64,000 bases of DNA. It comes from a bacterium (GTDB lineage: Bacteria > Patescibacteriota > Minisyncoccia > UBA6257 > 02-FULL-45-10c). The stretch spans positions 2,236-66,235 of the forward strand of contig JAUSKP010000048.1 in assembly GCA_030646555.1 (NCBI GenBank). Direction: 5' to 3'. Position 1 is the stretch's first letter; each line of letters starts with the position of its first letter. The position numbers and the translations under genes were made by a program. Below the pieces are notes generated by a model. The model ran no database searches and was not told where the DNA came from. It saw only the letters and a program-made list of their open reading frames with translations. Below, in pieces: positions 4,383 through 60,260 of the stretch.

Positions 4383-5144
4383 ATGGAATTTACATATTTA
4401 AGCGAGTCAGTAAGCATTAAAAAAATCTCTGAAACTATTACCGATGGCGTTTTTGAAATAGAAGGTCTTTATAACGGATATGGTTTAACGTTAGGAAACG
4501 CCCTAAGAAGAACTTTGTTTTCTTCTTTGCCCGGAGCAGCCATCACGCAAGTTAAAATAAAAGGCGTTGATCATGAATTTTCTACCATTCCGCATGTCTT
4601 AGAGGATATAGTGGAAATTTGCCTTAATCTTAAGAAAATAAGATTTAAGATCCTTGTAGACGAGCCTCAAATTTTAACATTGAAAATAAAAGGCGAGAAA
4701 AAAGTTTTAGCCAGTGATATTAAAGCCGGATCTCAAATTGAGATAATCAGCCCGGATATTCACATTGCTACTTTGTCTTCAAAATCAGCCGATTTAGATA
4801 TGGAATTAACAGTTGAAAAAGGCCTCGGATATGTGCCTGTTGAAGTCAGGAAATTTGAAAAACTCCCTGTCGGCACCATTGCCCTGGATTCATTTTTCTC
4901 CCCGGTTGTTAAAGTTAATTTTACGGTGGAAAATATGCGCGTAGGCGACAGGACCGATTATAATAAATTGAAAATAGAGATCAAGACAGACGGCAGTATT
5001 ACGCCTTCTTCCGCTTTGCATAAAGCCGGAAATATCTTGAAAGATCATTTTGATAAGATCTCAAAAGTAGAGGTATTGGAAATTACATCGGCTGAGACTA
5101 AAAAAGAAGTTAAAATCAAAAAAACAGTCAAAAAGAAGAAATAA
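4383..5144 (+). CDS. rpoA: DNA-directed RNA polymerase alpha subunit, N-terminal domain only (no alpha-CTD)
   Basis: LTLGNALRRTLFSSLPGAAITQVKIKGVDHEFSTIPHV matches the alpha-NTD dimerisation region. The protein is only 253 aa and ends in a Lys-rich tail. Confidence 0.85.
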   Translation: MEFTYLSESVSIKKISETITDGVFEIEGLYNGYGLTLGNALRRTLFSSLPGAAITQVKIKGVDHEFSTIPHVLEDIVEICLNLKKIRFKILVDEPQILTLKIKGEKKVLASDIKAGSQIEIISPDIHIATLSSKSADLDMELTVEKGLGYVPVEVRKFEKLPVGTIALDSFFSPVVKVNFTVENMRVGDRTDYNKLKIEIKTDGSITPSSALHKAGNILKDHFDKISKVEVLEITSAETKKEVKIKKTVKKKK

Positions 5145-21083: not shown

Positions 21084-21153
21084 ATTTAAACTTTAGTCCT
21101 TAGAAAATTGGAACGTGTTTTAAGATATATCTTATATGACGTTCTAAATTTGA

Positions 21154-21186
21154 CAAGAATGAGAAAATAGTGTATATTATACACTC
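21154..21186 (+). promoter_or_regulatory. sigma70-type promoter (TTGACA-17-TATATT) with overlapping palindromic operator AGTGTATA-T-TATACACT
   Basis: -35 TTGACA at 21154-21159, 17-nt spacer, -10 TATATT. An 8-bp perfect inverted repeat is centred on the -10. A near-identical module occurs at 29763-29800. Confidence 0.65.
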
Positions 21187-21231
21187 AAGTGAATTGTTCG
21201 TTCCAAATTCAGAAAAAGGAGATAAAAAAGA

Positions 21232-21369
21232 TGTCAGAACCGAAAAAAGAGCTGAGTAGCGAGGATCAGAAAAGCGAGGAGGCTTTTGCCGATCTGGTCT
21301 TTGCTAGCGAAAATGCGGTTATGGACAAAACCGGCTGGTTCGAAGTTCCGGTAAAGGCAGGGGAATAAG
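21232..21369 (+). CDS. small acidic protein (45 aa), hypothetical
   Basis: MSEPKKELSSEDQKSEEAFADLVFASENAVMDKTGWFEVPVKAGE. Strong RBS AAAGGAG 8 nt upstream, consensus promoter before it and a terminator after it. Below the ORF-track length cutoff. Confidence 0.45.
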
Positions 21370-21377
21370 TTTCAATA

Positions 21378-21412
21378 AAAGGGCGGATCTAATATGATTT
21401 CGCCCTTTTTTA
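21378..21412 (+). terminator. rho-independent terminator
   Basis: Stem AAGGGCG/CGCCCTT followed by TTTTTTATTT. Confidence 0.6.
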
Positions 21413-21466
21413 TTTGATGTTTTTAAGTTATAATCTTATTTAAGATTAGTAAAAAGAAAAAATTTA

Positions 21467-21577
21467 TGTCATTCCGGGCTCGACCCGGAATCCAGTCCGT
21501 CATTGCGAGCCCTAAAGGGGCGTGGCAATCTAATGAATTACTAGAGATTGCTTCGTCGCAGACTTCTCGCAATGACG
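21467..21577. repeat. composite palindromic element (A-unit, B-unit, spacer, inverted B-unit)
   Basis: TGTCATTCCGGGCTCGACCCGGAATCC + GTCATTGCGAGCCCTAAAGGGGCGTGGCAATC ... GATTGCTTCGTCGCAGACTTCTCGCAATGACG. Confidence 0.8.
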
Positions 21578-21606
21578 AAGATAATAATTAAAATTAGTAA
21601 AAATAT

Positions 21607-21944: not shown

Positions 21945-22007
21945 TTGCCGCTGAAGCAATCTATTTTAATCACGAGATTGCCACGTCGCAGACTCCTCGC
22001 AATGACA
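21945..22007. repeat. composite palindromic element (B-variant + inverted B-unit) between hpf and secA
   Basis: GTCATTGCGATTGCCGCTGAAGCAATC ... GATTGCCACGTCGCAGACTCCTCGCAATGACAGA. Ends 10 nt before the secA ATG. Confidence 0.8.
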
Positions 22008-22016
22008 GAAAAATAA

Positions 22017-24365
22017 ATGTTTAACTTTTTTTCTTTTTTTGATCCGGTCAAGAAGCTTAAACCGGTTATTGAAAAAATAAATGATCTGGAAAAAGAAATA
22101 TCTTCTTTGAGCAATGAACAGCTTTTGGAAGAAAGCAAAAAACTTTTTGAAATAGAAATAGGCGAGAATGAATTGGTAAAAGGTTTTGCTTTAGTCAGAG
22201 AAACTGCCAAGAGAAATCTTGGCCAGCGTCATTTTGATGTCCAGCTGATGGGCGGCTTGGCGCTCCACGAAGGAAGAATTGCTGAAATGGCAACCGGTGA
22301 AGGAAAAACATTGGCTTCCACCGCGCCGATATATTTGAATGCGCTTTCCAAAAAAGGCGTTCACGTGGTAACCGTCAATGAATATTTAGCCAAAAGAGAT
22401 GCTGTTTGGATGGGCCAAATTTATCATGCTTTGGGGCTTTCTGTGGCTTGTTTGATCCACGAAGGCGCTTTGATGTATGACCCAAAATACATCTCTAAAA
22501 ACGCTGAAACGCTCATAGACAGGGAAAGGGACACAACCGGCAGTTTTATGGTGCAAGGCGAGTATTTAAGGCCAATTTCGCGCAAAGAAGCCTATTTAGC
22601 GGACATTACCTATGGCACAAACCATGAATTCGGCTTTGACTACCTAAGGGACAATTTAGCTTATTCTAGCGGAAACCAGGCGCAAAGAGGGCATAATTAT
22701 GTAGTAATTGATGAAATAGACAGCATTTTAATTGATGAAGCTAGGACCCCGCTTATTATTTCTGCTCCGGACGAAGAATCCAGCGATTTTTATAAGCAAT
22801 TTTCGCGCATAGTTTCCATGCTCAAAAAGGACGAGGATTATATAATTGACGAGAAAATGAAGTCGGCCGACATCACCGACGAAGGAATAAATAAAGTTGA
22901 AAAAGCTTTAAAGATAAAAAATCTTTATGATCCGGAAAATCTGAGACTGACCCGATATTTGCAGGAAACCCTGAAAGCTTACGGTTTGTTCAGGCGAGAC
23001 AAAGATTATGTGGTAAAAAATAATGAAGTAATTATCGTTGACCAGTTTACCGGCAGGCTTATGCCGGGCAGAAGATATTCCGGCGGATTGCATCAGGCCT
23101 TGGAGGCGAAAGAAAATGCGCAAGTTCAAAATGAATCCAGGACCTATGCGCAAATTACAATTCAAAATTATTTCAGGCTTTATAAAAAGATTGGGGGTAT
23201 GACCGGCACTGCCAGGACTTCAGCCGAGGAATTTGAAAAAGTATACGGACTGAAAGTTTTAAATATTCCGACCAATAAACCTTTGGCGAGAATTGATCAG
23301 CCAGACTTGATTTATAAAAACGAAGGCGCGAAATACAACGCCATTATTGAAGATGTTAAAGAAAGGCAAAAAATGGGTCAGCCGATACTCATCGGTTCAA
23401 TTTCTATAGAAAAAAATGAAATTTTGTCTAATTTGCTTAATAAATTCGGCGTGAGACACGAAATATTAAATGCTAAAAATCATGAACGTGAGGGCGCCAT
23501 TATTGCCCAGGCAGGAAGAGTCGGGGCCGTGACAGTCGCCACTAATATGGCGGGCCGTGGTGTAGATATTGTTCTTGGCGGCAATCCGGTGGATCCGGTA
23601 GAAAACCAAAAGGTAAAAGAATTGGGCGGACTCCACGTGATCGGCACGGAAAGGCACGAGGCTAGAAGAATTGACTATCAGCTTCAGGGACGAAGCGGAA
23701 GGCAGGGAGATCAAGGCTCATCCCAGTTTTTCCTTTCCTTGGAAGATGATCTTTTGCGTGTTTTTGGCGGAGAAAGAATTAAAAATTTAATGGAAAATTT
23801 TAATATCCCTGAAAATATGCCAATTGAATCGGGGATTGTGTCCAAAGCAGTTTCTCAAGCTCAAACCAAAATTGAAGGATTTAATTTTGACTCAAGAAAA
23901 AATTTGCTTGATTATGACGACATTTTAAATAAACAAAGACTCTCTGTTTATAAGAAACGCCAGGAAATGCTTGAAAAAAGTACTCATCCACAAATACTTT
24001 CTGTTTTAGATCTGTTTTGGATGAATCATTTGGAAAGTATGGAGGCCCTGCGGGAATCTGTGAGAATAAGGGCTTATGGCCAGCATGATCCGCTTGTTGA
24101 ATATCGCCGTGAAAGCCACGTTTTATATAGGCAGATGCTGGAGGGTTTTGAGAAATGGCTTGTTGAAAATAAAGAAAAAATTGAGGAAATGATTAAACAA
24201 CAAGCAGCCTCCTCTGTCATTCCCGCGAAAGCGGGAATCCAGGAAAAGAACTGGATTCCGGGTCAAGCCCGGAATGACAACAAGATGAATGGCCAAAAAG
24301 TTGGCAGAAATGATAATTGTCCATGCGGAAGCGGAAAAAAATACAAAAAGTGCCACGGAAAATAA
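22017..24365 (+). CDS. secA: preprotein translocase ATPase SecA with C-terminal zinc-binding tail and an in-frame repeat-encoded insertion
   Basis: DEAD-like motor motifs (MATGEGKT, VIDEIDSILIDEARTPLIIS), C-terminal CPCGSGKKYKKCHGK. Residues VIPAKAGIQEKNWIPGQARND are encoded by an A-family repeat pair. Confidence 0.9.
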   Translation: MFNFFSFFDPVKKLKPVIEKINDLEKEISSLSNEQLLEESKKLFEIEIGENELVKGFALVRETAKRNLGQRHFDVQLMGGLALHEGRIAEMATGEGKTLASTAPIYLNALSKKGVHVVTVNEYLAKRDAVWMGQIYHALGLSVACLIHEGALMYDPKYISKNAETLIDRERDTTGSFMVQGEYLRPISRKEAYLADITYGTNHEFGFDYLRDNLAYSSGNQAQRGHNYVVIDEIDSILIDEARTPLIISAPDEESSDFYKQFSRIVSMLKKDEDYIIDEKMKSADITDEGINKVEKALKIKNLYDPENLRLTRYLQETLKAYGLFRRDKDYVVKNNEVIIVDQFTGRLMPGRRYSGGLHQALEAKENAQVQNESRTYAQITIQNYFRLYKKIGGMTGTARTSAEEFEKVYGLKVLNIPTNKPLARIDQPDLIYKNEGAKYNAIIEDVKERQKMGQPILIGSISIEKNEILSNLLNKFGVRHEILNAKNHEREGAIIAQAGRVGAVTVATNMAGRGVDIVLGGNPVDPVENQKVKELGGLHVIGTERHEARRIDYQLQGRSGRQGDQGSSQFFLSLEDDLLRVFGGERIKNLMENFNIPENMPIESGIVSKAVSQAQTKIEGFNFDSRKNLLDYDDILNKQRLSVYKKRQEMLEKSTHPQILSVLDLFWMNHLESMEALRESVRIRAYGQHDPLVEYRRESHVLYRQMLEGFEKWLVENKEKIEEMIKQQAASSVIPAKAGIQEKNWIPGQARNDNKMNGQKVGRNDNCPCGSGKKYKKCHGK
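24215..24279. repeat. A-family repeat pair inserted in-frame in the secA 3' end
   Basis: TGTCATTCCCGCGAAAGCGGGAATCCAG...GGATTCCGGGTCAAGCCCGGAATGACA translates in the secA frame as SVIPAKAGIQEKNWIPGQARND. Confidence 0.8.
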
Positions 24366-24431: not shown

Positions 24432-26768
24432 TTACCTTATTTTTAATTTCAGTCCAGTAATTTCGGCTCTTAATTCTTCAATCTGTTTCTGCTGGTCTTG
24501 AATAGCGCCGGTCAAAATTGCTTCCATACCGGTTGGATTGTACCAATAGTATCCTTTATCATCTTGCGAGATCATTTCCGGAATAACATTTTTAACCTCT
24601 TGAGCAATAAATCCATACTTCAATCCCGGATTTGTGCCAAACTGGCTGTCGTGAAGCGCGTTCCATCTGTAAGAAACAGGGCGAAGAGCCATTATTTTAT
24701 TAAGAGACTCTCCTTTTAATTCACTATAAACATTTTTCCATCGCTGGTCAGAAGTGCTAGTCCAGGCAGTTCCCGTAGACAATCCGGCTGTTCCGACAAC
24801 ACTAAGCGCGTACGTCCCTGGCGCCGTCGTCCCAATGCCGACTTTGCCGGATGAATTTACCGTCAAAACATCACCCACTGAAGCATCGCTAACAGAAAAA
24901 TAATTCTTTCCTCCATTATAGTTTCCATAAGCGGAAGTTGGAGGCGTAAAATTAGCTGTCCATCTGGCAATCCCTTTGCTTACACGAACCTCATCTATTG
25001 CCCCGGTAAATCTTGACCCAGGGGCAGAGTCTGCGCCAAGGAAAAAGCCGGCGGTGGCGGCGTCATTGGTCGGAACCCCTGTTACGTCTTTAGTGTCTTG
25101 AAGTGCACCATCTATGTATAATTTTAGCGTGTTGCTTTGCCTAATAAAGGCGACGTGGTGCCAAGCATTATCACTGGTGTCCACCGTAGAGGTTACATCG
25201 TAGGCCGTCGCAGAGCTGTTCCAAATATACGCCCATAAATATTTCCCGCCGTAAATTTTCCAACTGGAACCGGCGCCGGTATTGTCTCCATATGCAATTA
25301 TAGGGTTAGTCCATTGACTATCCGTAGTAATCGCGCTTTTGTACCATAGATCTATAGTGAATTCGCCGCTTCCCATTTCATAGTCAACGTTATCCGTTGG
25401 TCCGGCAACATAGTCGCCTGTACCATCAAACAAAATAGAACCTGTCCCAAATTTTTGAAATGCTGTGTCAATTTGAGCGTCTGCTTGGCGCGTCATAGTT
25501 TTACTGGATTCATCGGTTATAGTAGCGGAACCGTCTGTTCCATTGGCATGGATAAGCGTTTTACTATAACTGTCATCCACACCTACTTCCGTAAATAATC
25601 CAGTATCGCGTCCTCTTACGTCAAGTGTTGATTCTGGTGTCGTCGTCCCTATGCCGACTTTGCCGGCAGTTGAAATAAATATCGTTGATGTTCCGACTGC
25701 GGTGTTTGCACTGCTAAAGTATGCAAGCTGGCCGGTAGAACCCGTCAAACTCGCGCTTCCGCCCGCGACACAAGTTCCATTTATGGCAAAACAGCCTCTT
25801 GCAACATCTATTCCGCCAGTTGAAGAAAAAGTAGATGTGGCAGTTGAAAAGTTTATGCCATTAGTATTTCCCACAGAAAACAAACTGCCGGGAGTCGTGG
25901 AGGAAATGCCGACGTTGCCGCCATTAGTGATGATTAAGTTAGTAGCCGTGGAAGAACCAATCACAAAAGCTGGACCGGTAATTCCGTTGGGATTGACAGA
26001 CAAAAGTCCCCATGGAGAAGAAGAGGCGATGCCAGTCTTGCCCTCTATTATCATTCCTGAAGTTGGCGCCGCGATAATGCCGTAAGTTGCTCCGACAGAA
26101 GCGCTGCCAGTTATACCCAGTTTGGACAGGGGCGCCGTATTTCCGATGCCGACACTACCACTTATATAAGCATTATTCCAAGGCAAAGCAGTAGTGCCGA
26201 TATCATAAAAAGTTGCGGCGCCGGGAATAAGATTAGAATCAAAAGTAGCGGCGGACACGCGGGCAATTGCCGAGCTTAAAGTGCGGGAAAAAGCGGATGC
26301 CGGATTAGTGGTGTTGTAGCTCAAAGTCAGATCAATTTGCACGGAATCATGCCCTGAATATCCGGAAACTTTTAAAAAGTTAACTGCGTCGGCAACAACA
26401 CTGCTATTGGTAAGCGGTTGGGGAGTGCCGTTAGCTTCTTCTTTATAAACTATGCCGTTTAAAATATAAAATTCCGTAGGATTTTTGGTATCGTCTTTAA
26501 ATCTCAAAACTAAAGTGGAGGTGGAAGTGCCGGCGTCTATATCAATGACAGAAGAATCCCTAATAGATCTCTGCATATTTTGCAGGGTGAAATTAAGCTG
26601 TTCATTGACTTCTATGACGGCAGTTTGCCTGCTTTTAATTTTTGTAGTGTCAATCAGAACGCCGGATAAAACTGCTCCTGTGGCGCCTAAGATGGCGGTA
26701 TAAATTAAAACTTCCATGAGGGTAAAACCACCTATTTTTTTATTTGTAGTCATAGATATATTATACAA
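24432..26768 (-). CDS. type IV pilin-like protein with tail-fibre-like repeats, LamG-like domain and C-terminal S74 intramolecular-chaperone (auto-cleaving) domain
   Basis: N-terminal class-III signal KKIGG|FTLMEVLI with Glu at +5. Gly/Ser/Thr-rich repeats of the GKVGIGTTTPESTLDVRG type. LamG-like segment (WHHVAFIRQSNTLKLYIDG...AIDEVRVSKGIARW). C-terminal ...STSDQRWKNVYSEL...LRPVSYRWN...GFIAQEVKNVIPEM...IQDQQKQIEELRAEI matches the phage tail-spike/endosialidase chaperone domain. Confidence 0.8.
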   Translation of the reverse strand: MYNISMTTNKKIGGFTLMEVLIYTAILGATGAVLSGVLIDTTKIKSRQTAVIEVNEQLNFTLQNMQRSIRDSSVIDIDAGTSTSTLVLRFKDDTKNPTEFYILNGIVYKEEANGTPQPLTNSSVVADAVNFLKVSGYSGHDSVQIDLTLSYNTTNPASAFSRTLSSAIARVSAATFDSNLIPGAATFYDIGTTALPWNNAYISGSVGIGNTAPLSKLGITGSASVGATYGIIAAPTSGMIIEGKTGIASSSPWGLLSVNPNGITGPAFVIGSSTATNLIITNGGNVGISSTTPGSLFSVGNTNGINFSTATSTFSSTGGIDVARGCFAINGTCVAGGSASLTGSTGQLAYFSSANTAVGTSTIFISTAGKVGIGTTTPESTLDVRGRDTGLFTEVGVDDSYSKTLIHANGTDGSATITDESSKTMTRQADAQIDTAFQKFGTGSILFDGTGDYVAGPTDNVDYEMGSGEFTIDLWYKSAITTDSQWTNPIIAYGDNTGAGSSWKIYGGKYLWAYIWNSSATAYDVTSTVDTSDNAWHHVAFIRQSNTLKLYIDGALQDTKDVTGVPTNDAATAGFFLGADSAPGSRFTGAIDEVRVSKGIARWTANFTPPTSAYGNYNGGKNYFSVSDASVGDVLTVNSSGKVGIGTTAPGTYALSVVGTAGLSTGTAWTSTSDQRWKNVYSELKGESLNKIMALRPVSYRWNALHDSQFGTNPGLKYGFIAQEVKNVIPEMISQDDKGYYWYNPTGMEAILTGAIQDQQKQIEELRAEITGLKLKIR

Positions 26769-26782
26769 TAATATTAGGTTAA

Positions 26783-26836
26783 GGAATATAGAATTTAGAA
26801 TATTGAATATAGAATAGGAATAGAGAATGTTGAATT
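26783..26836. repeat. AT-rich GAATATAGAAT-type low-complexity repeat (inverted copy at 27236-27275; similar motif at 34088-34135)
   Basis: AGAATATTGAATATAGAATA here versus the reverse complement of 27245-27270 (AGAATATTGAATACAGAATA) gives 19/20 identity. The two copies flank the four-helix-bundle gene. Confidence 0.5.
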
Positions 26837-27225
26837 TAAGATTCGTATCTTTTCTGGCGAGTAGCTTGCAATAAGCCTGTAAGAAGTTTATTGGCTATAA
26901 TTGATTGCTCAGCGCATTCGTCAAAATATTCTTTTGATAAATAACCAACATCCTTAGCAATTAAAAGCTGGTTTTGAAGCTCAGTCATTGAACCCTTAGC
27001 GTTGCTGTAGAAATAATGTTTTTCTTTTGAGGACCTTCTGCTAAAACCCTCGGCAATATTAGAAGTAAAAGAAACTACAGCTCTTCTCATTTGATCTGTG
27101 AGTCCATATTTTTCTTCTGAAGGAAAGTTTTTAGTTTCCTTATAAATCATCAAAACTAGTTTGTGTCCTTCCTGCCAAACTAATAAATCGGTAAATCTTT
27201 GAATTTTCTTAATTTCCTTATTCAT
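26836..27225 (-). CDS. four-helix-bundle protein (23S rRNA IVS-protein family, TIGR02436-like)
   Basis: 129 aa; LLVWQ....L...IY..T..FP..E.YGLTDQMRRA..S...NIAEGF.R.S..E...F...A.GS..E; family assignment from memory of the conserved pattern. Confidence 0.6.
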   Translation of the reverse strand: MNKEIKKIQRFTDLLVWQEGHKLVLMIYKETKNFPSEEKYGLTDQMRRAVVSFTSNIAEGFSRRSSKEKHYFYSNAKGSMTELQNQLLIAKDVGYLSKEYFDECAEQSIIANKLLTGLLQATRQKRYES

Positions 27226-27275: not shown

Positions 27276-27970
27276 TATACCCCAGAGGGGTCCGTGAAAA
27301 AGATAACCAAAGTTTTAAAAAGAATTTTAATATCTAGCCATAAAGACTGATTTTCCAAATAATATTTGTCGTATTCTAATTCCTTAAGAAAGGGGAGTCC
27401 TGAAGCGCCATTCACTTGAGATAGGCCGGTCAAGCCCGTTTTTGCCGCAAGAAGCTCGCGATATTCTCTGGGGTAAGCAAATAGTTCTTCCGGTTCGTGC
27501 GGCCTTGGGCCGACCAAAGAAAGCTCTCCTTTTAAAACATTTATTAATTGCGGAAGCTCATCTAATCTGAATTTTCTTAAAAACCTGCCAACTTTTGTAA
27601 TGCGGGGATCATTTTTTATCTTAAAGAATGGCCCGTCCTTGCGCTCATTTAAGCTTAATAAATCTTTCTTTTGTTTTTCAGCGCCTAAAACCATGGATCT
27701 GAATTTATACACTTTGATTATTTTTCCTTCGCTTATTCTGTCTAGTTTTATTAAAATCGGACTATTTGTCATTTTTGCGAAAAATCCCCCTTCATCCCCC
27801 TTTATAAAGGGGGAAAGAGGGGGATTAGGATTTGTTAATATTTGGGACATCGGAAGTCCAAGAAAAGAATCCATTTTTATGGCCAGCGCGATGAACGGAA
27901 AGAACGGAAGCAAAATAATTAGACCTATTAATGAGCCAAGTATGTCAATTAGTCTTTTTATGATAAACAT
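27275..27970 (-). CDS. initiating sugar transferase (bacterial sugar transferase / WbaP-WcaJ C-terminal domain family) with in-frame palindrome insertion
   Basis: N-terminal TM, KVYKFRSM, LSLVGPRPHEPEE..., LTGLSQVNG signature. Extra segment FLGLPMSQILTNPNPPLSPFIKGDEGG between the conserved AIK.DS and FF...KFRSM positions. Confidence 0.8.
   Translation of the reverse strand: MFIIKRLIDILGSLIGLIILLPFFPFIALAIKMDSFLGLPMSQILTNPNPPLSPFIKGDEGGFFAKMTNSPILIKLDRISEGKIIKVYKFRSMVLGAEKQKKDLLSLNERKDGPFFKIKNDPRITKVGRFLRKFRLDELPQLINVLKGELSLVGPRPHEPEELFAYPREYRELLAAKTGLTGLSQVNGASGLPFLKELEYDKYYLENQSLWLDIKILFKTLVIFFTDPSGV
27783..27826. repeat. 44-nt nested perfect palindrome inside the sugar transferase coding region
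   Basis: AATCCCCC-ttcat-CCCCCTTTATAAAGGGGG-aaaga-GGGGGATT. The reverse complement translates in-frame to NPPLSPFIKGDEGG. Confidence 0.85.
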
Positions 27971-28206: not shown

Positions 28207-29685
28207 ATGCGCGTTGCAATCATTCACGATTATCTAAATCAATATGGCGGAGCGGAAAGAGTACTTGAAGCTTTTTGCGAGCTTTTTCCTGATGCGCCAA
28301 TCTATACTCTTTTTTACGATGAGGAAAAAACACTCGGGAGATTTAAAGACAAGGATATTAGAACAAGTTTTTTGGATATGAACTGGATTGCCACGTCTCA
28401 CCTGTCCGAAGCTTTACGCGAAGGAGGGTCGCAGGCTTTCCCGATTGCAAAGCAATCGAGGATCCTCGATAAAGTCGGGACTCGCAATGACAGAAAGGGG
28501 GAACTGGATTCCCGCTTTCGCGGGAATGACAGAGAGATTGCTTCGGCGCAGACTTCTCGCAATGACGGAATGGAAGCGGGAATAGTGGAAAAGAAAGGCG
28601 GAATCTTTCATAAATTTGTAATAAATAATCACAGGCTTTTTATCCCGCTAATGCCTATCGCCGCTTCGCTTATGAAAGTTGACGATGACTACGATGTGGT
28701 TTTATCTTCTAGCGCCGGATTCGGAAAGGGGATGAGAGTCGGGAAAAACACTATCCATATTTCTTATTGCCATACGCCCCTGCGTTACGCCTGGGAACAT
28801 TACAAATATTTTAATTGGCAAACTTATTTAAAAATTTTATCTGCCCCGGCTTTTTGGTATTTAAGAATATGGGATAAGTGGGTTGGACGAAAACCGCAAA
28901 AACTAATCGCCAATTCCAAATATATCTCCGAAAAAATAAAAAAATATTATAAAAGAGAGGCGGAAGTAATTTATCCGCCGGTAGATACCGAAAAATTCTG
29001 CGTCAAACCGAAAGTCAAAAAAGGGGATTATTTTTTGGCTGTCGGCAGGCTTATTCACTACAAAAAATTTGACCTGATCATTCGGGCATTCAATAAATTG
29101 AATTTGCCGCTTTTAATAATCGGCAATGGTCCGGAATTGGAAAATTTAAAACAATTAGCTAAATCCCCCCGCCTTCGCCCCGACTTCGCGAATGTTTCGC
29201 CGGGCAAACAAGGCTCCCTCCTTCGCCAAGGCTATGGCGGGCAAGCTGGCGGGCAAAGTAAAATAGAGTTTTTAACTTCCATAACCGATGAGCAATTAAT
29301 TCTTTTATATAATGGCGCGCAAGCTTTTATTTTTCCTCAGGTAGAAGATTTTGGACTGGTGGCCGCTGAAGCGCAGGCTTGCGGAACGCCGGTAATAGCC
29401 CTAAACCAAGGCGGTGGAAGAGAAATAGTTGAAGACGGCAAAACCGGCATTTTGTTTAACAATCAAAATGTAGATGATCTGATTATGGCGGTAAAAAGAT
29501 TCACCCTGTTAAATAATTTCGCTTTTAGAGAAATTCCCGCAAGAGCGGGATTTAACAGGGTAAAAATAAAGCAATTTGACCAAAAATTGATCCGTGAATC
29601 TGCGCTGCGATTTTCTAAAAATAAATTTAAAAAAGCGATATTGAAGGCGGTTTATGAAGCAAGGAATGCGTCATCCCGTACTTGA
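28207..29685 (+). CDS. GT4-family glycosyltransferase carrying repeat-derived in-frame insertions
   Basis: N-terminal MRVAIIHDYLNQYGGAERV, C-terminal GT-B motifs (E..G....EA.ACG.PVIA). Two internal segments and the C-terminal NASSRT-stop are encoded by A/B/C-family repeat units. Confidence 0.8.
   Translation: MRVAIIHDYLNQYGGAERVLEAFCELFPDAPIYTLFYDEEKTLGRFKDKDIRTSFLDMNWIATSHLSEALREGGSQAFPIAKQSRILDKVGTRNDRKGELDSRFRGNDREIASAQTSRNDGMEAGIVEKKGGIFHKFVINNHRLFIPLMPIAASLMKVDDDYDVVLSSSAGFGKGMRVGKNTIHISYCHTPLRYAWEHYKYFNWQTYLKILSAPAFWYLRIWDKWVGRKPQKLIANSKYISEKIKKYYKREAEVIYPPVDTEKFCVKPKVKKGDYFLAVGRLIHYKKFDLIIRAFNKLNLPLLIIGNGPELENLKQLAKSPRLRPDFANVSPGKQGSLLRQGYGGQAGGQSKIEFLTSITDEQLILLYNGAQAFIFPQVEDFGLVAAEAQACGTPVIALNQGGGREIVEDGKTGILFNNQNVDDLIMAVKRFTLLNNFAFREIPARAGFNRVKIKQFDQKLIRESALRFSKNKFKKAILKAVYEARNASSRT
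28385..28585. repeat. tandem B-long, A and B repeat units inserted in-frame in the GT4 gene (about 67 aa)
   Basis: GATTGCCACG...CTCGCAATGACA (109 nt), then GGATTCCCGCTTTCGCGGGAATGACA, then GATTGCTTCGGCGCAGACTTCTCGCAATGACGG. Encodes ...LDSRFRGNDREIASAQTSRNDG.... Confidence 0.85.
29163..29258. repeat. C-family GC-rich hairpin repeat inserted in-frame in GT4 (encodes SPRLRPDFANVSPGKQGSLLRQGYGGQAGGQS)
   Basis: CCGCCTTCGCC...CTCCTTCGCCAAGGCTATGGCGGGCAAGCTGGCGGGCAAAG resembles the 32694-32749 and 33205-33235 units. Interrupts the conserved GT-B region between LKQLAK and KIEFL. Confidence 0.7.
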
Positions 29686-29758
29686 TACGGGATCCAGGTC
29701 GAGGACTGGATTCCAAATCAAGTTTGGAATGACAGAGGGAGAAATGCTCGCAATGACA
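29669..29758. repeat. composite A/A/B-remnant element overlapping the GT4 stop codon
   Basis: GTCATCCCGTACTTGATACGGGATCC (the GT4 TGA stop lies in the hairpin loop) ... GGATTCCAAATCAAGTTTGGAATGACA ... GCTCGCAATGACAGA. Confidence 0.8.
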
Positions 29759-29764
29759 GAAAAT

Positions 29765-29799
29765 TTGACAAATAGGTGAAATTAGTGTATTTTATACAT
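29765..29799 (+). promoter_or_regulatory. sigma70-type promoter with operator-like palindrome, sibling of 21154-21186
   Basis: TTGACAAATAGGTGAAATTAGTGTATTTTATACAT; about 30/38 identity to the 21153 module, including the GTGTAT.TTATACA core. Confidence 0.6.
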
Positions 29800-29827
29800 A
29801 GTTCATTCAACCTTTAGGAGGGGAAAA

Positions 29828-30082
29828 TTGATAGAAACAATAAAAGAAGAAGAGGTAAAGATAAATACCAAGAGCGGGATTGTCGGAAAAACAATAAGCG
29901 AAATTGAGAAAGAATTCCAGGTTTGCATAGTGGAATTAAAAAATCTCAGCGATCGCGCATTCGTGTTTTCGTGGGAGGAAAAACCTGAAAAATCCACAAC
30001 TATCAAACCGGAAGACGAGATAGTTGTTTCCGGAGAACCGTTGAATATCAAGCAGTTTTCCAAGGCCGCCTCTCTGAATTAA
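29828..30082 (+). CDS. stand-alone TrkA-C (RCK C-terminal)-like domain protein, TTG start
   Basis: 84 aa; G.IVGKTISEIE....V.IV.....R.......P...I..GD.I.V.G; RBS AGGAGGGG upstream; followed by a strong terminator. Confidence 0.5.
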   Translation: MIETIKEEEVKINTKSGIVGKTISEIEKEFQVCIVELKNLSDRAFVFSWEEKPEKSTTIKPEDEIVVSGEPLNIKQFSKAASLN

Positions 30083-30088
30083 GAGAAG

Positions 30089-30128
30089 CACCCCCTCACT
30101 CATATAGAGTGAGGGGGTTTTATTTTTA
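30089..30128 (+). terminator. rho-independent terminator
   Basis: CACCCCCTCACTC-atatag-AGTGAGGGGGT followed by TTTATTTTTAT. Confidence 0.8.
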
Positions 30129-30155: not shown

Positions 30156-30298
30156 TGTCATTCCTGCGAAAGCAGGAATCCATGTTTTTAGTTCATAATC
30201 TCTGGATTCCGGGTCAAGCCCGGAATGACAGATATGAGTAGATTGCTTCCTCCTTCGCATGGCTTCGGACGGACAAGTCGGCGGCACTCGCAATGACG
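30156..30298. repeat. composite palindromic element (A fwd, A rev, B-long rev with internal C hairpin)
   Basis: TGTCATTCCTGCGAAAGCAGGAATCC ... GGATTCCGGGTCAAGCCCGGAATGACA ... GATTGCTTCCTCCTTCGCATGGCTTCGGACGGACAAGTCGGCGGCACTCGCAATGACGG. Confidence 0.8.
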
Positions 30299-30362
30299 GA
30301 AAGACAACAAAAATGACATAGAGAAACTTCATTTTTTGTTCATTTTAAGTTAAAATCTATAA

Positions 30363-32201: not shown

Positions 32202-32352
32202 TGTCATTCCGCACTTGTCGCCGAAGTCATCGCTATGCGAGATCTGGCGAAGCCAGACAATCTATCTATCTGTCATTGCGAGGGCTTTGGCCCGCGGCAA
32301 TCTATCTTATTATGGATTGGATTGCCACGTCGCGGACTCCTCGCAATGACAG
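32202..32352. repeat. composite palindromic element (A-long, B, inverted B) immediately 3' of lepA
   Basis: TGTCATTCCGCACTTGTCGCCGAAGTCATCGCTATGCGAGATCTGGCGAAGCCAGACAATC, TGTCATTGCGAGGGCTTTGGCCCGCGGCAATC, GATTGCCACGTCGCGGACTCCTCGCAATGACAGA. Confidence 0.8.
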
Positions 32353-32379
32353 AGAATATGATAAAATTAGAGGATAATA

Positions 32380-33164: not shown

Positions 33165-33257
33165 TGTCATTCCCGCGAAAGCGGGAATCCAGAAAACCTA
33201 GATTCCGCATCCCTCCGCCGCAAGGCTTCGGACGGGCAAGCAAGTGCGGAATGACAG
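33165..33257. repeat. composite palindromic element (A fwd + A-long rev with internal C hairpin) upstream of prfB
   Basis: TGTCATTCCCGCGAAAGCGGGAATCC ... GATTCCGCATCCCTCCGCCGCAAGGCTTCGGACGGGCAAGCAAGTGCGGAATGACAGA. Confidence 0.8.
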
Positions 33258-33344: not shown

Positions 33345-34088
33345 ATGTTTAACCCATTGCTAGATAAATACGATAAAAAAAACGCCAACATCTCCCTTTT
33401 TCCCGGCGTGGGCGGAGATGATGCAAAAGATTGGGCGATAATGCTTTTGAATATGTACGTTAAATACGCCCAAAAACGAGGCTGGAAAGTGGTTCAAGTT
33501 GACGATAGATCTATAGATATAAGAGGGGAATATGCTTATGGCAATCTGAAAAAAGAAACTGGCGTGCACCGCCTGGTCAGAATATCTCCATTTGATTCCA
33601 AAAAACTCCGGCACACATCTTTTGCTTTAGTTGAAGTTTTGCCGGAAATTCCCGAAATAGAATTAAAGAATATAATAATTCCTTCGGAAGATCTGAAAAT
33701 AGAATTATCAAATTCCAGCGGTCCCGGCGGACAAAACGTGAATAAAAGAGAGACCGCGGTAAGGGCAGTGCATTTGCCGACAGGTCTCGCGGCGGCATCT
33801 CAAGTAGAAAGATCACAGCTTCAAAACAAAGAAAAAGCTTTGGCGTTGTTAAAGGCCAAATTGTTTAAATTGATGGCTGATAAGCAAGAAGGCGAGATAA
33901 AAAATCTTAGAACGCAAGTAAAACCGGAATGGGGCAATCAGATTCGCTCATATGTCCTTCATCCGTACCAACAGGTTAAGGATCATCGCACTGATATGGT
34001 AAGCCATCAGCCGGACAAAGTGTTAAACGGCGATTTGGAAAAATTCATTGAAGCAGAATTGGACACGGCGCCAGAATCTAGAATTTAG
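33345..34088 (+). CDS. prfB: peptide chain release factor 2 lacking N-terminal domain 1
   Basis: SPF tripeptide (RISPFDSKKLRHTSF), GGQ motif (SGPGGQNVNK); 247 aa, aligning from about residue 115 of E. coli RF2. All upstream frames are closed. Confidence 0.8.
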   Translation: MFNPLLDKYDKKNANISLFPGVGGDDAKDWAIMLLNMYVKYAQKRGWKVVQVDDRSIDIRGEYAYGNLKKETGVHRLVRISPFDSKKLRHTSFALVEVLPEIPEIELKNIIIPSEDLKIELSNSSGPGGQNVNKRETAVRAVHLPTGLAAASQVERSQLQNKEKALALLKAKLFKLMADKQEGEIKNLRTQVKPEWGNQIRSYVLHPYQQVKDHRTDMVSHQPDKVLNGDLEKFIEAELDTAPESRI

Positions 34089-58845: not shown

Positions 58846-58913
58846 GAAATTCTCCTAAAGAACAAATTCTTCCGTCTGATAATTCAGACTGAAGTTTTTA
58901 TACTATAACACAC

Positions 58914-60260
58914 TTATTTGTACTTTGTCAAGAGTTCCTGAGAATAGTTGATTATGTCGCCGGCACCCATCATTACGATAGTAACAGGGGACTTATAACC
59001 CCTAATTACCTCAAAAATAGCCTTATTTAAGCCCGTTTTAGGGTTTTCCAGGTATATTGAACCCTTAATATGATTGGCTAGACTTTTAGCATTATATCTA
59101 ATTTCTACCTGATTTTCCCTACCGGCAACCTTATAAATAGGGAACACAATAGTCTTATTGGCATCGGAAAATGCGCGCGTAAAATCTTTAAAAAGCGCTT
59201 TGAGCCGTTTGGCCTGATGAGGCTGAAAAACACATATCAGTTTGTTCTTGGGGTATTTTTCTTTGAGGCCCTGAAGCGTGGCCTTGACTTCATTCGGATG
59301 ATGGGCATAATCGTCAAAAAGAATAATTTTATTTTTTAAACTGTGAAATTTTAATTCGCCCTTATATTCCATTCTTCGCCAAACTCCGTTGAATTTACTT
59401 ATTGAACTTAAAATTATTTTTTCGGAAATATCCAAACCCCTGGCAACGGAGTAGGCGACAAGCGCATTCAATTGGTTGTGTTTTCCGGGAATTTTAAGCA
59501 TCCACCTAATCTCATCTTTAATTTTTGCCGGCACATCCGAAATTGGATATTTCTTCAAAGACGCCGCTTTTGAAACAACTTCGCCAAGAGCTTTATTGAG
59601 ATCATTAAATATTATTTTTGATCCGGCTTTATGATTTGCCAAAAATCTTTGAAAAGACTTTTTAACTCCAGCGAAGTTCTTATAAAAATCCAAATGCTCG
59701 CGATCAATATTGGTGATACCGGAGATAAAGGGATGATAATTCCAGAACGCTCCGCCATATTCATCGGCTTCTAAAACTAAATATTCACTTTTGCCTAATC
59801 GAAAATTGCTGCCATTAAACTCTTTAAGTTTGGTGCCTACTATAACCGTCGGGTCCAAACTGGCGCTTATCATAATTAAAGCCACTAAAGCCGTAGTCGT
59901 GCTTTTTCCGTGCGCGCCGGCAATGGCGACTATCTTGAATTCCTTGGAAAGTTCACCAACAGCTTCGGGATACGACATATGATCCAAACCCATTTTAAGA
60001 ACCTGCTTCATTTCGGAATTATCCAAATTAACCGCCTGACTATGGATGATCAAGGTATTCTTCAAATTTCTTATATTTCCGGCATTATGCCCAATATAGA
60101 CAACCGCCCCTTCTTTTGCCAAATCCCTGATTATAGGGGAGTCAGATAAGTCGGAACCTAATACTTTATACCCCTTAGACAAAAAATAACGCGCCAAGGC
60201 GCTCACGCCTATCCCGCCGATGCCAATGAAATAAATTAATTTATATTTGGCAAAAATCAT
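58914..60260 (-). CDS. murC: UDP-N-acetylmuramate--L-alanine ligase
   Basis: N-terminal Rossmann GIGGIGVSALA, Mur ligase ATP motif GAHGKSTTTA, C-terminal domain; 448 aa. Confidence 0.9.
   Translation of the reverse strand: MIFAKYKLIYFIGIGGIGVSALARYFLSKGYKVLGSDLSDSPIIRDLAKEGAVVYIGHNAGNIRNLKNTLIIHSQAVNLDNSEMKQVLKMGLDHMSYPEAVGELSKEFKIVAIAGAHGKSTTTALVALIMISASLDPTVIVGTKLKEFNGSNFRLGKSEYLVLEADEYGGAFWNYHPFISGITNIDREHLDFYKNFAGVKKSFQRFLANHKAGSKIIFNDLNKALGEVVSKAASLKKYPISDVPAKIKDEIRWMLKIPGKHNQLNALVAYSVARGLDISEKIILSSISKFNGVWRRMEYKGELKFHSLKNKIILFDDYAHHPNEVKATLQGLKEKYPKNKLICVFQPHQAKRLKALFKDFTRAFSDANKTIVFPIYKVAGRENQVEIRYNAKSLANHIKGSIYLENPKTGLNKAIFEVIRGYKSPVTIVMMGAGDIINYSQELLTKYK

Follow-up and report, generated by a model that had tools for sequence, protein, structure and literature searches.

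Two small genes and the sequences ahead of them

We analyzed two similar 38-nt blocks, site 1 and site 2, that precede two small genes in a 64,000-nt stretch of DNA from a bacterium of the Patescibacteriota (Parcubacteria group; GenBank assembly GCA_030646555.1, contig JAUSKP010000048.1, forward-strand positions 2,236 to 66,235). The whole stretch is called the window here, and coordinates are those of the window. Site 1 lies between a GtrA-family gene and an open reading frame (ORF) of 45 amino acids (aa), with an HPF gene and then secA downstream. Site 2 lies between a GT4 glycosyltransferase gene and an 84-aa TrkA_C gene, with lepA downstream. Both arrangements, GtrA-peptide-HPF-SecA and GT4-TrkA_C-LepA, are kept in relatives. 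An earlier note on this DNA, made from its letters alone, had described the two blocks as a repressor-controlled promoter duplicated in front of two tiny genes. Loci of related Patescibacteria carry L numbers below, and repeat families found by a repeat finder carry D numbers. The features of the site 1 unit are as follows.

21108-21147, + strand: hairpin separating the GtrA gene from the site 1 promoter (-13.5 kcal/mol, z -3.0), probably the end of the upstream transcription unit
21146-21183, + strand: site 1 shared block (AAATTTGACAAGAATGAGAAAATAGTGTATATTATACA), predicted promoter of the 45-aa gene; family D20; highest-scoring promoter match of the window
21150-21155, + strand: -35 hexamer TTGACA, 6/6 to consensus; invariant in L001-L006, L190 and L228
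21169-21185, + strand: perfect 8-1-8 palindrome AGTGTATA-T-TATACACT over the -10 and likely start region; unique in the window
21173-21178, + strand: -10 hexamer TATATT (5/6), 17-bp spacer, GTG before it (TG at -14/-13)
21216-21221, + strand: Shine-Dalgarno (SD) sequence AAGGAG of the 45-aa gene; conserved in orthologues
21231-21368, + strand: gene for a 45-aa acidic peptide (MSEPKKELSSEDQKSEEAFADLVFASENAVMDKTGWFEVPVKAGE); no Pfam family, narrow clade only
21377-21415, + strand: predicted intrinsic terminator of the 45-aa gene, stem and U-run (-16.4 kcal/mol, z -4.4)

The site 2 unit has the same layout, and a cluster of repeats resembling repetitive extragenic palindromic (REP) elements abuts its promoter.

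29665-29760, + strand: REP-like repeat cluster directly upstream of site 2, overlapping the 3' end of the GT4 gene; families D9 and D18
29761-29798, + strand: site 2 shared block (AAATTTGACAAATAGGTGAAATTAGTGTATTTTATACA), predicted promoter of the TrkA_C gene; family D20; ranks second among the promoter matches of the window
29765-29770, + strand: -35 hexamer TTGACA, 6/6; conserved in orthologues except L013 (TTGACC) and L014 (TGGACA)
29786-29798, + strand: partial dyad TGTAT-TTT-ATACA, right arm specific to this genome
29788-29793, + strand: -10 hexamer TATTTT (4/6), 17-bp spacer, GTG before it
29816-29821, + strand: SD sequence AGGAGG of the TrkA_C gene; conserved
29828-30082, + strand: 84-aa single-domain TrkA_C (RCK C-terminal) protein, TTG start (PF02080, E 8.2e-9)
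30090-30118, + strand: predicted intrinsic terminator of the TrkA_C gene, 12-bp stem with 8 GC pairs and U-run (-26.1 kcal/mol, z -6.8)

The earlier description of the two units was largely borne out, in that each block appears to drive a short ORF, encoding an acidic peptide in one case (11 D/E against 5 K) and a TrkA_C protein in the other, and each ORF is followed by a strong terminator. Its statement that both follow repeat clusters held for site 2; site 1 is preceded by the simple hairpin, and the REP cluster near it (21466-21592) lies downstream of the 45-aa gene. The REP-like cluster at site 2 is not part of the promoter, because other orthologues have other elements or none at that position.

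Sites 1 and 2 are the two top-scoring sigma-70/sigma-A promoter matches in the window, with 11/12 and 10/12 agreement to consensus. Both combine a -35 close to TTGACA with a -10 that has A at position 2 and T at position 6, at a spacing within the 16-18 bp range; both are intergenic and correctly oriented, with 53 nt (site 1) and 35 nt (site 2) between the end of the -10 and the start codon. When the two 5' leaders were folded, no structure beyond that of shuffled sequences was found (z +0.4), which argues against a riboswitch- or attenuator-like leader, and an Rfam scan of the whole window returned three tRNAs only, with no match at either site. We also considered a divergent minus-strand promoter on the site 1 palindrome (TATAAT), which was rejected because its best -35 was TTGGAA at 19-bp spacing and no gene lies in that direction. 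Collectively, these features make it likely that the sites are two independent, near-consensus housekeeping promoters of the sigma-70/sigma-A type, each heading a compact stand-alone small-gene unit. As promoters they would be ordinary strong ones of a well-known kind, and the genes that they head are predicted to be highly expressed.

The two sites resemble each other beyond chance

The two strings quoted in the earlier note, TTTGACAAGAATGAGAAAATAGTGTATATTATACACTC and TTTGACAAATAGGTGAAATTAGTGTATTTTATACATAG, are present at 21149-21186 and 29764-29801 (placed there at 21153-21190 and 29763-29800). Their identity, put at about 80% over 38 nt, is 29/38 (76%) in that frame and 32/38 (84%) in the best frame, 21146-21183 against 29761-29798, which the repeat finder had reached independently. 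As a null for the pair, both sites were anchored on the hexamers and the 32 positions outside the fixed hexamer bases were scored against a position-specific profile. This profile summarized 120 unselected TTGACA-N17-TAnnnT sites, all taken from unrelated bacterial loci that total 1.38 Mb. Sites 1 and 2 match at 23/32 of these positions, with P ~1e-5 under a null that treats positions as independent, while strong promoters tend to be near the optimum everywhere. The likeness therefore reaches past both hexamers, as had been claimed, and it exceeds chance and needs an explanation. Unrelated individual promoters match these sites at up to 17-21/32 positions. We suggest that sites 1 and 2 resemble each other far beyond average promoters because both lie near the optimum in the hexamers and in the additional positions.

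Orthologues keep predicted polymerase contacts while the palindrome decays

Thirteen orthologous promoters from related Patescibacteria were compared, namely L001-L003, L005, L006, L190 and L228 for site 1, and L007, L008, L012-L014 and L200 for site 2. L004, in which the upstream region fails to align, was left out because it lies on a short, low-coverage contig. The TG at -14/-13, the -10 TATWTT and an A at -6 are kept in 13/13. At site 1, the TG and the -10 hexamer persist in all orthologues including L228 (GATGTATATT), and at site 2 the -10 region GTGTATTTT does not vary among 7 aligned orthologue sequences. Nearly all 13 also share TTGACAA and an A-rich AAAWT block (about -22 to -18), and only single-base changes in L013, L014 and L200 depart from this. 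The site 2 orthologues conserve TTGACAA..CC.AAATT[AGC]GTGTATTTTA together with the leader start AGTTCATTCAA. The sequence upstream of the -35 is unrelated between orthologues, with REP insertions or other hairpins in its place. From this pattern we read the conserved positions as contacts of RNA polymerase and not as a dyad.

The inverted repeat followed a different course. It had been described as centered on the -10 at both sites and perfect at the first; at site 1 it is indeed a perfect 8-1-8 palindrome, while at site 2 only TGTAT-N3-ATACA (5-3-5) is present. The site 1 dyad is intact in close relatives and decays with distance: it is weakened in L190 (TATACAT, 1 mismatch) and broken in L006 (TATTTAC, 2 mismatches). 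The most distant syntenic site 1 orthologue, L228, reads GATGTATATTATATAA; its palindrome is lost (ATGTATATTATATAA), with both outer arms changed without compensation, and yet it still has both hexamers, along with the AAAAT block and the TG that adjoins the -10. At site 2 the right arm is absent in all orthologues, which have ATGTAT, ATGTGT, AATAAG, AATATA or ATAGGC where the window has ATACAT, and this arm is the least conserved stretch of the site. The palindrome can be explained by the self-complementary, AT-rich core of the -10 (TATA|TATA), which has GTG to its left and, to its right, a CAC or CAT that is confined to some lineages. We thus regard it as a by-product of promoter sequence and not as a conserved protein-binding dyad.

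Compared with all its orthologues, site 2 of this genome carries five derived substitutions (29776-29778 and 29796-29797), which turn CC[CA] into GTG in the spacer and GT into AC after the -10. It is these five changes that make the window pair extreme in similarity; without them, the two sites would match at 19-20/32. Pairs of orthologues taken across the two families match at 14-21/32 non-hexamer positions, and distant true orthologues within the site 1 family match at 17-21/32.

The same promoter form occurs in other phyla

The combination TTGACAA-N12-AGTGTATNTTAT has at least 120 matches in species genomes; the groups listed include Firmicutes (Clostridia), Synergistetes (Synergistaceae), Lentisphaerae (Victivallaceae), Planctomycetes (Planctomycetota), Saccharimonadales, Moraniibacteriota and others. 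The flanks of the listed matches are promoter-like, with A-tracts upstream and RNA genes or SD-ATG downstream. The stricter form TTGACAA-N7-AAAWTRGTGTATWTTAT was found in 93 metagenome stretches, which derive from gut, rumen, marine and sediment samples. It precedes many unrelated genes there, again with A-tracts upstream and SD-ATG downstream; orthologues L150, L172, L189, L190 and L200 are among these matches. The profile of unselected strong promoters from those loci shows A,A after the -35, an A-rich spacer and then T-R-T-G-n. Of 186 unselected sites, 22 (~12%) have TG at -14/-13; a mid-spacer control position has it in 6, and 26% carry it at the canonical position. TAGTG ranks with the most frequent pentamers preceding the -10.

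Extended -10 promoters, with a TGn element (-15 to -13) or the Gram-positive -16 region TRTG (-17 to -14), have been reviewed together with UP elements, which are read by the RNA polymerase alpha subunit's C-terminal domain (PMC2613000). The sites studied here share with them TTGACA, a 17-bp spacer, a -10 with A-11 and T-7, a T-R-x-T-G block 5' of the -10, an A-rich spacer, an SD-led gene downstream and contact positions that are conserved in orthologues. They differ in that T-A-G-T-G abuts TATWTT at both sites, so that neither TG at -15/-14 nor TRTG at -17 to -14 is present, and in that the host polymerase appears to lack the alpha C-terminal domain, so that the A/T-rich stretch upstream of the -35 would not be a classical UP element. 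Spacer composition is reported to be conserved across bacterial phyla and selected for promoter strength (PMC12641261). The proximal spacer described here, kept across orthologues, fits the cross-phylum profile, although Patescibacteria do not appear in the text of that paper.

These comparisons are compatible with the following mechanism. The holoenzyme would read a perfect -35 (TTGACA plus A), with sigma region 4 on TTGACA; the promoter-proximal half of the 17-bp spacer (AAAWT) would help as in other bacteria; and the TG directly 5' of the -10 would make a contact resembling that of an extended -10, one base away from the canonical -15/-14, next to the TATWTT read by sigma region 2. Each transcript would then comprise a leader of 35-53 nt, a strong SD sequence, a small ORF and an intrinsic terminator.

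Four observations weigh against two independent, ordinary promoters. The window pair, at 23/32, is more alike than any of the 120 unrelated promoters is to site 1 or site 2 (maxima 17 and 21). The TG at both sites is one base nearer to the -10 than in the textbook TGn. Four of the five derived substitutions at site 2 go toward the sequence of site 1, and together they create the partial dyad; the chance of such a coincidence is ~0.045, and it should be regarded as unexplained but weak. Lastly, TTGACA-17-GTGTATNTT occurs only at these two loci in ~95 kb of lineage sequence, a frequency that on its own would allow a small regulon.

Alternative explanations

The earlier note had read the palindrome as an operator. 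In such a scheme, a dimeric DNA-binding protein would occupy the dyad (A)GTGTAT-N3-ATACAC(T) over the -10 and start site and co-repress both small genes, which adjoin translation- or secretion-related genes (HPF-SecA and LepA). The palindrome at site 1 is perfect and, by the suggested search for GTGTAT-N1-3-ATACAC, unique in the window. The looser TGTAT-N1-5-ATACA occurs twice in the 64 kb, at exactly these two promoters, against 0.18 expected (2/100 shuffles reach 2), and nowhere else in ~95 kb of lineage sequence. Its position over the -10/+1 region is typical for repressors, the full dyad is kept by close site 1 relatives, and derived substitutions created the right arm at site 2. However, the half-sites are not co-conserved. 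The right arm is missing in every site 2 orthologue, including L172 from the same sample as the dyad-intact site 1 locus L005/L150, and at site 1 L006 has a broken dyad and L228 has neither side of it, with the polymerase-contact positions unchanged. Much of it is the self-complementary TATA core of the -10, and the cross-phylum matches listed show no clear enrichment of TATACA behind the -10 (an estimated ~7/118 compared to ~4 expected from base composition). Nor did the suggested look for a cognate regulator succeed: no helix-turn-helix, winged helix-turn-helix, ribbon-helix-helix or other regulator domain was detected in the ~70 ORFs of the window, where the only trace was a sub-threshold MarR_2 match inside ScpB. 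Palindromic repressor operators that overlap the -10 include the 7-1-7 boxes of the Fur family and the LexA SOS box, CTGT-N8-ACAG. Site 1 resembles them in its 7-1-7/8-1-8 geometry over the -10 and start site and in being AT-rich inside with G/C-containing outer positions. It differs in that its sequence fits none of these boxes, its half-sites are not co-conserved, no regulator gene was found in the window, and site 2 has only 5+5 bases that are specific to this genome. In their usual forms, none of the E. coli-type LexA box, the Gram-positive Cheo box (GAAC-N4-GTTC), the NrdR box (ACAC..GTGT, whose arms have the opposite polarity), the Fur/PerR/Zur 7-1-7 boxes or CIRCE matches, and a search of the available literature returned no usable Patescibacteria promoter or start-site study and no Patescibacteria LexA motif. 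Thus, we do not favor a repressor-controlled promoter and judge co-repression through this dyad to be very unlikely.

The excess similarity could also reflect common descent, with one promoter cassette copied in front of a second gene by ancient duplication or by short, patchy gene conversion, possibly aided by REP elements. Consistent with this, identity is 32/38 with P ~1e-5 against the generic promoter null, four of the five derived changes match site 1, and L228 of the site 1 family shares TTGACAAATAG with the site 2 family. In the window a REP-like cluster borders the -35 of site 2, as such clusters do the -35 of site 1 in L002, L003 and L006, and L005 carries a gene for a Y1 transposase (PF01797) close to the locus, right after secA. 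However, the identity ends sharply at the functional promoter edges, at about -41 and +5, with unrelated flanks, leaders and coding sequences; each promoter is old and has its own syntenic gene context; and the cross-family matches of 14-21/32 fall within the range of unrelated promoters from other phyla (17-21). A single gene-conversion tract was rejected because differing positions separate the two derived patches, and carriage by REP-like elements because these are present, absent or different beside orthologous promoters, independently of the promoter itself. Common descent, whether by the duplication originally proposed or by conversion, is therefore highly improbable. A further explanation is a promoter grammar peculiar to the clade, in which an alpha subunit without its C-terminal domain leaves strong promoters to draw affinity from the AAAWT of the spacer and the TG at -14/-13, so that the twin look would represent an extended consensus specific to Parcubacteria and not a generic bacterial one. 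RpoA in the window (4383-5144, + strand; rplQ starts 64 nt later) is a 253-aa protein with the N-terminal domains only (PF01000 and PF01193), and its best 120 homologues, from Patescibacteria, Wolfe-, Pace- and Harrisonbacteria, are 243-270 aa long with the same two domains and no PF03118. The polymerase of this clade thus seems to be without the domain responsible for reading UP elements and contacting class I activators, which makes a UP-element contribution unlikely; strong promoters may then lean more on core and spacer contacts. In line with such a grammar, nearly every orthologue in either family has AAAWT and TG, including where the proteins are only ~61-65% identical, and cross-family similarity equals that of distant true orthologues. 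The same extended pattern is nevertheless common in phyla presumed to have full-length alpha, most other promoters in the window lack it and many look -10-only or leaderless, and three strong promoters from the clade are too few to define a consensus. We therefore hold this explanation to be tentative and on balance unlikely. Still less likely, in our estimate, is a broader version in which a Parcubacteria grammar (TTGACAA, N7, AAAWT, N, R-TG, TATWTT, A) replaces UP contacts and/or a nascent start-site dyad, TGTAT-N3-ATACA, serves a factor that couples both tiny genes by hpf-secA and lepA. If true, it would give a first glimpse of promoter architecture and of a mini-regulon in an uncultivated ultra-small bacterium.

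The small genes and a third unit of the same design

The 45-aa ORF seems to be a genuine gene, since the motif VFASE..AV...TG.FE.PVK, C-terminal in the peptide, is kept in P0011, a 35-aa orthologue encoded at L228, and in L190. A remote-homologue search with the peptide returned P0011 as the one orthologue. P0010, a 592-aa protein of six tandem repeats with a repeated DKTGKFEVPVP, was taken as a short-motif coincidence. A secM-like arrest peptide upstream of secA was also considered and dropped, as the peptide lacks a signal sequence and is separated from secA by a strong terminator and by hpf. Homopolymer-length frameshifts affect the 45-aa gene in some assemblies: L150 has A6 where L189, the same sequence from another sample, has A7, and in L190 (9830-9990) the conserved C-terminal motif is retained only with a frame change. 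Assembly errors are the probable cause, but gene calls are affected; P0002 is a mis-called 55-aa product of this gene. Upstream, the center of the 21108-21147 hairpin, AAGATATATCTT, is conserved, and its arms differ between relatives yet remain complementary. L005 has a perfect 28-nt palindrome with different arms around AAGATATATCTT (1707-1737), the right arm of which ends in TAGTGTATAC, echoing TAGTGTATAT of the promoter. Orthologues of the TrkA_C protein start with TTG, GTG or ATG at the same place and are 61-89% identical to that of the window. The closest relatives of both small genes come from 0.1-0.2 µm filter fractions of Hainich groundwater.

A third unit of this kind, spanning 58931-58620 on the minus strand, was found elsewhere in the window.

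58897-58931, - strand: predicted promoter, TTGACA-18-TATAGT with a canonical TGTGT (-16 region)
58845-58636, - strand: 69-aa hydrophobic ORF with AGGAG and its own terminator; no Pfam family

The three units thus follow one design, with a consensus promoter, leader, strong SD sequence, ORF of 45-84 aa and intrinsic terminator. In this they resemble stand-alone small-protein genes with their own strong promoter and terminator, although their products (an acidic peptide, a TrkA_C protein and a hydrophobic peptide) are unrelated.

Most other genes of the window have weak or -10-only signals. The best -10-like hexamer, in several cases close to TATAAT, ends only 5-8 nt before the start codon of the genes at 27970(-), 30363(+), 37966(+), 40401(-), 47923(-), 49792(-), 57812(-), 60260(-) and 60669(-). 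With this placement, a sizeable share of the window genes may have mRNAs that are leaderless or nearly so, unlike the SD-led small genes.

REP-like palindromic units fall into several families (GTCATTCC[CG]G..GGAATC; GATTGC..CTCGCAATGAC; CTGGATTCCGGGTCAAGCCCGGAATGACA) and are clustered in intergenic regions. Clusters lie at 21466-21592, 21976-22010, 24215-24279, 28536-28570, 29170-29245, 29665-29760, 30156-30310, 32320-32355 and 33165-33240, and one lies in frame inside the GT4 glycosyltransferase gene (28207-29685). The last of the listed regions, full of such units, is upstream of a release-factor gene (33345-34088, + strand) that encodes a 247-aa protein with SPF and GGQ motifs (RF2-like); it starts just before the PCRF core and lacks domain 1. 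On the minus strand, 24432-26768 encodes a 777-aa protein with Laminin_G_3 and Peptidase_S74 (endosialidase chaperone, tail-fiber-like) domains, beside a 23S rRNA intervening-sequence protein (bAvd-like) at 26836-27225.

Significance

These data illustrate that two promoters near the polymerase optimum are enough to produce a striking 38-nt twin, perfect palindrome included, and that comparison of orthologues settles such a question quickly. The finding matters little on its own, and its by-products are more useful. They comprise three small-protein genes of a Patescibacteria genome that are candidates for high expression, and evidence on which spacer positions are constrained in a clade whose polymerase appears to lack the alpha C-terminal domain.

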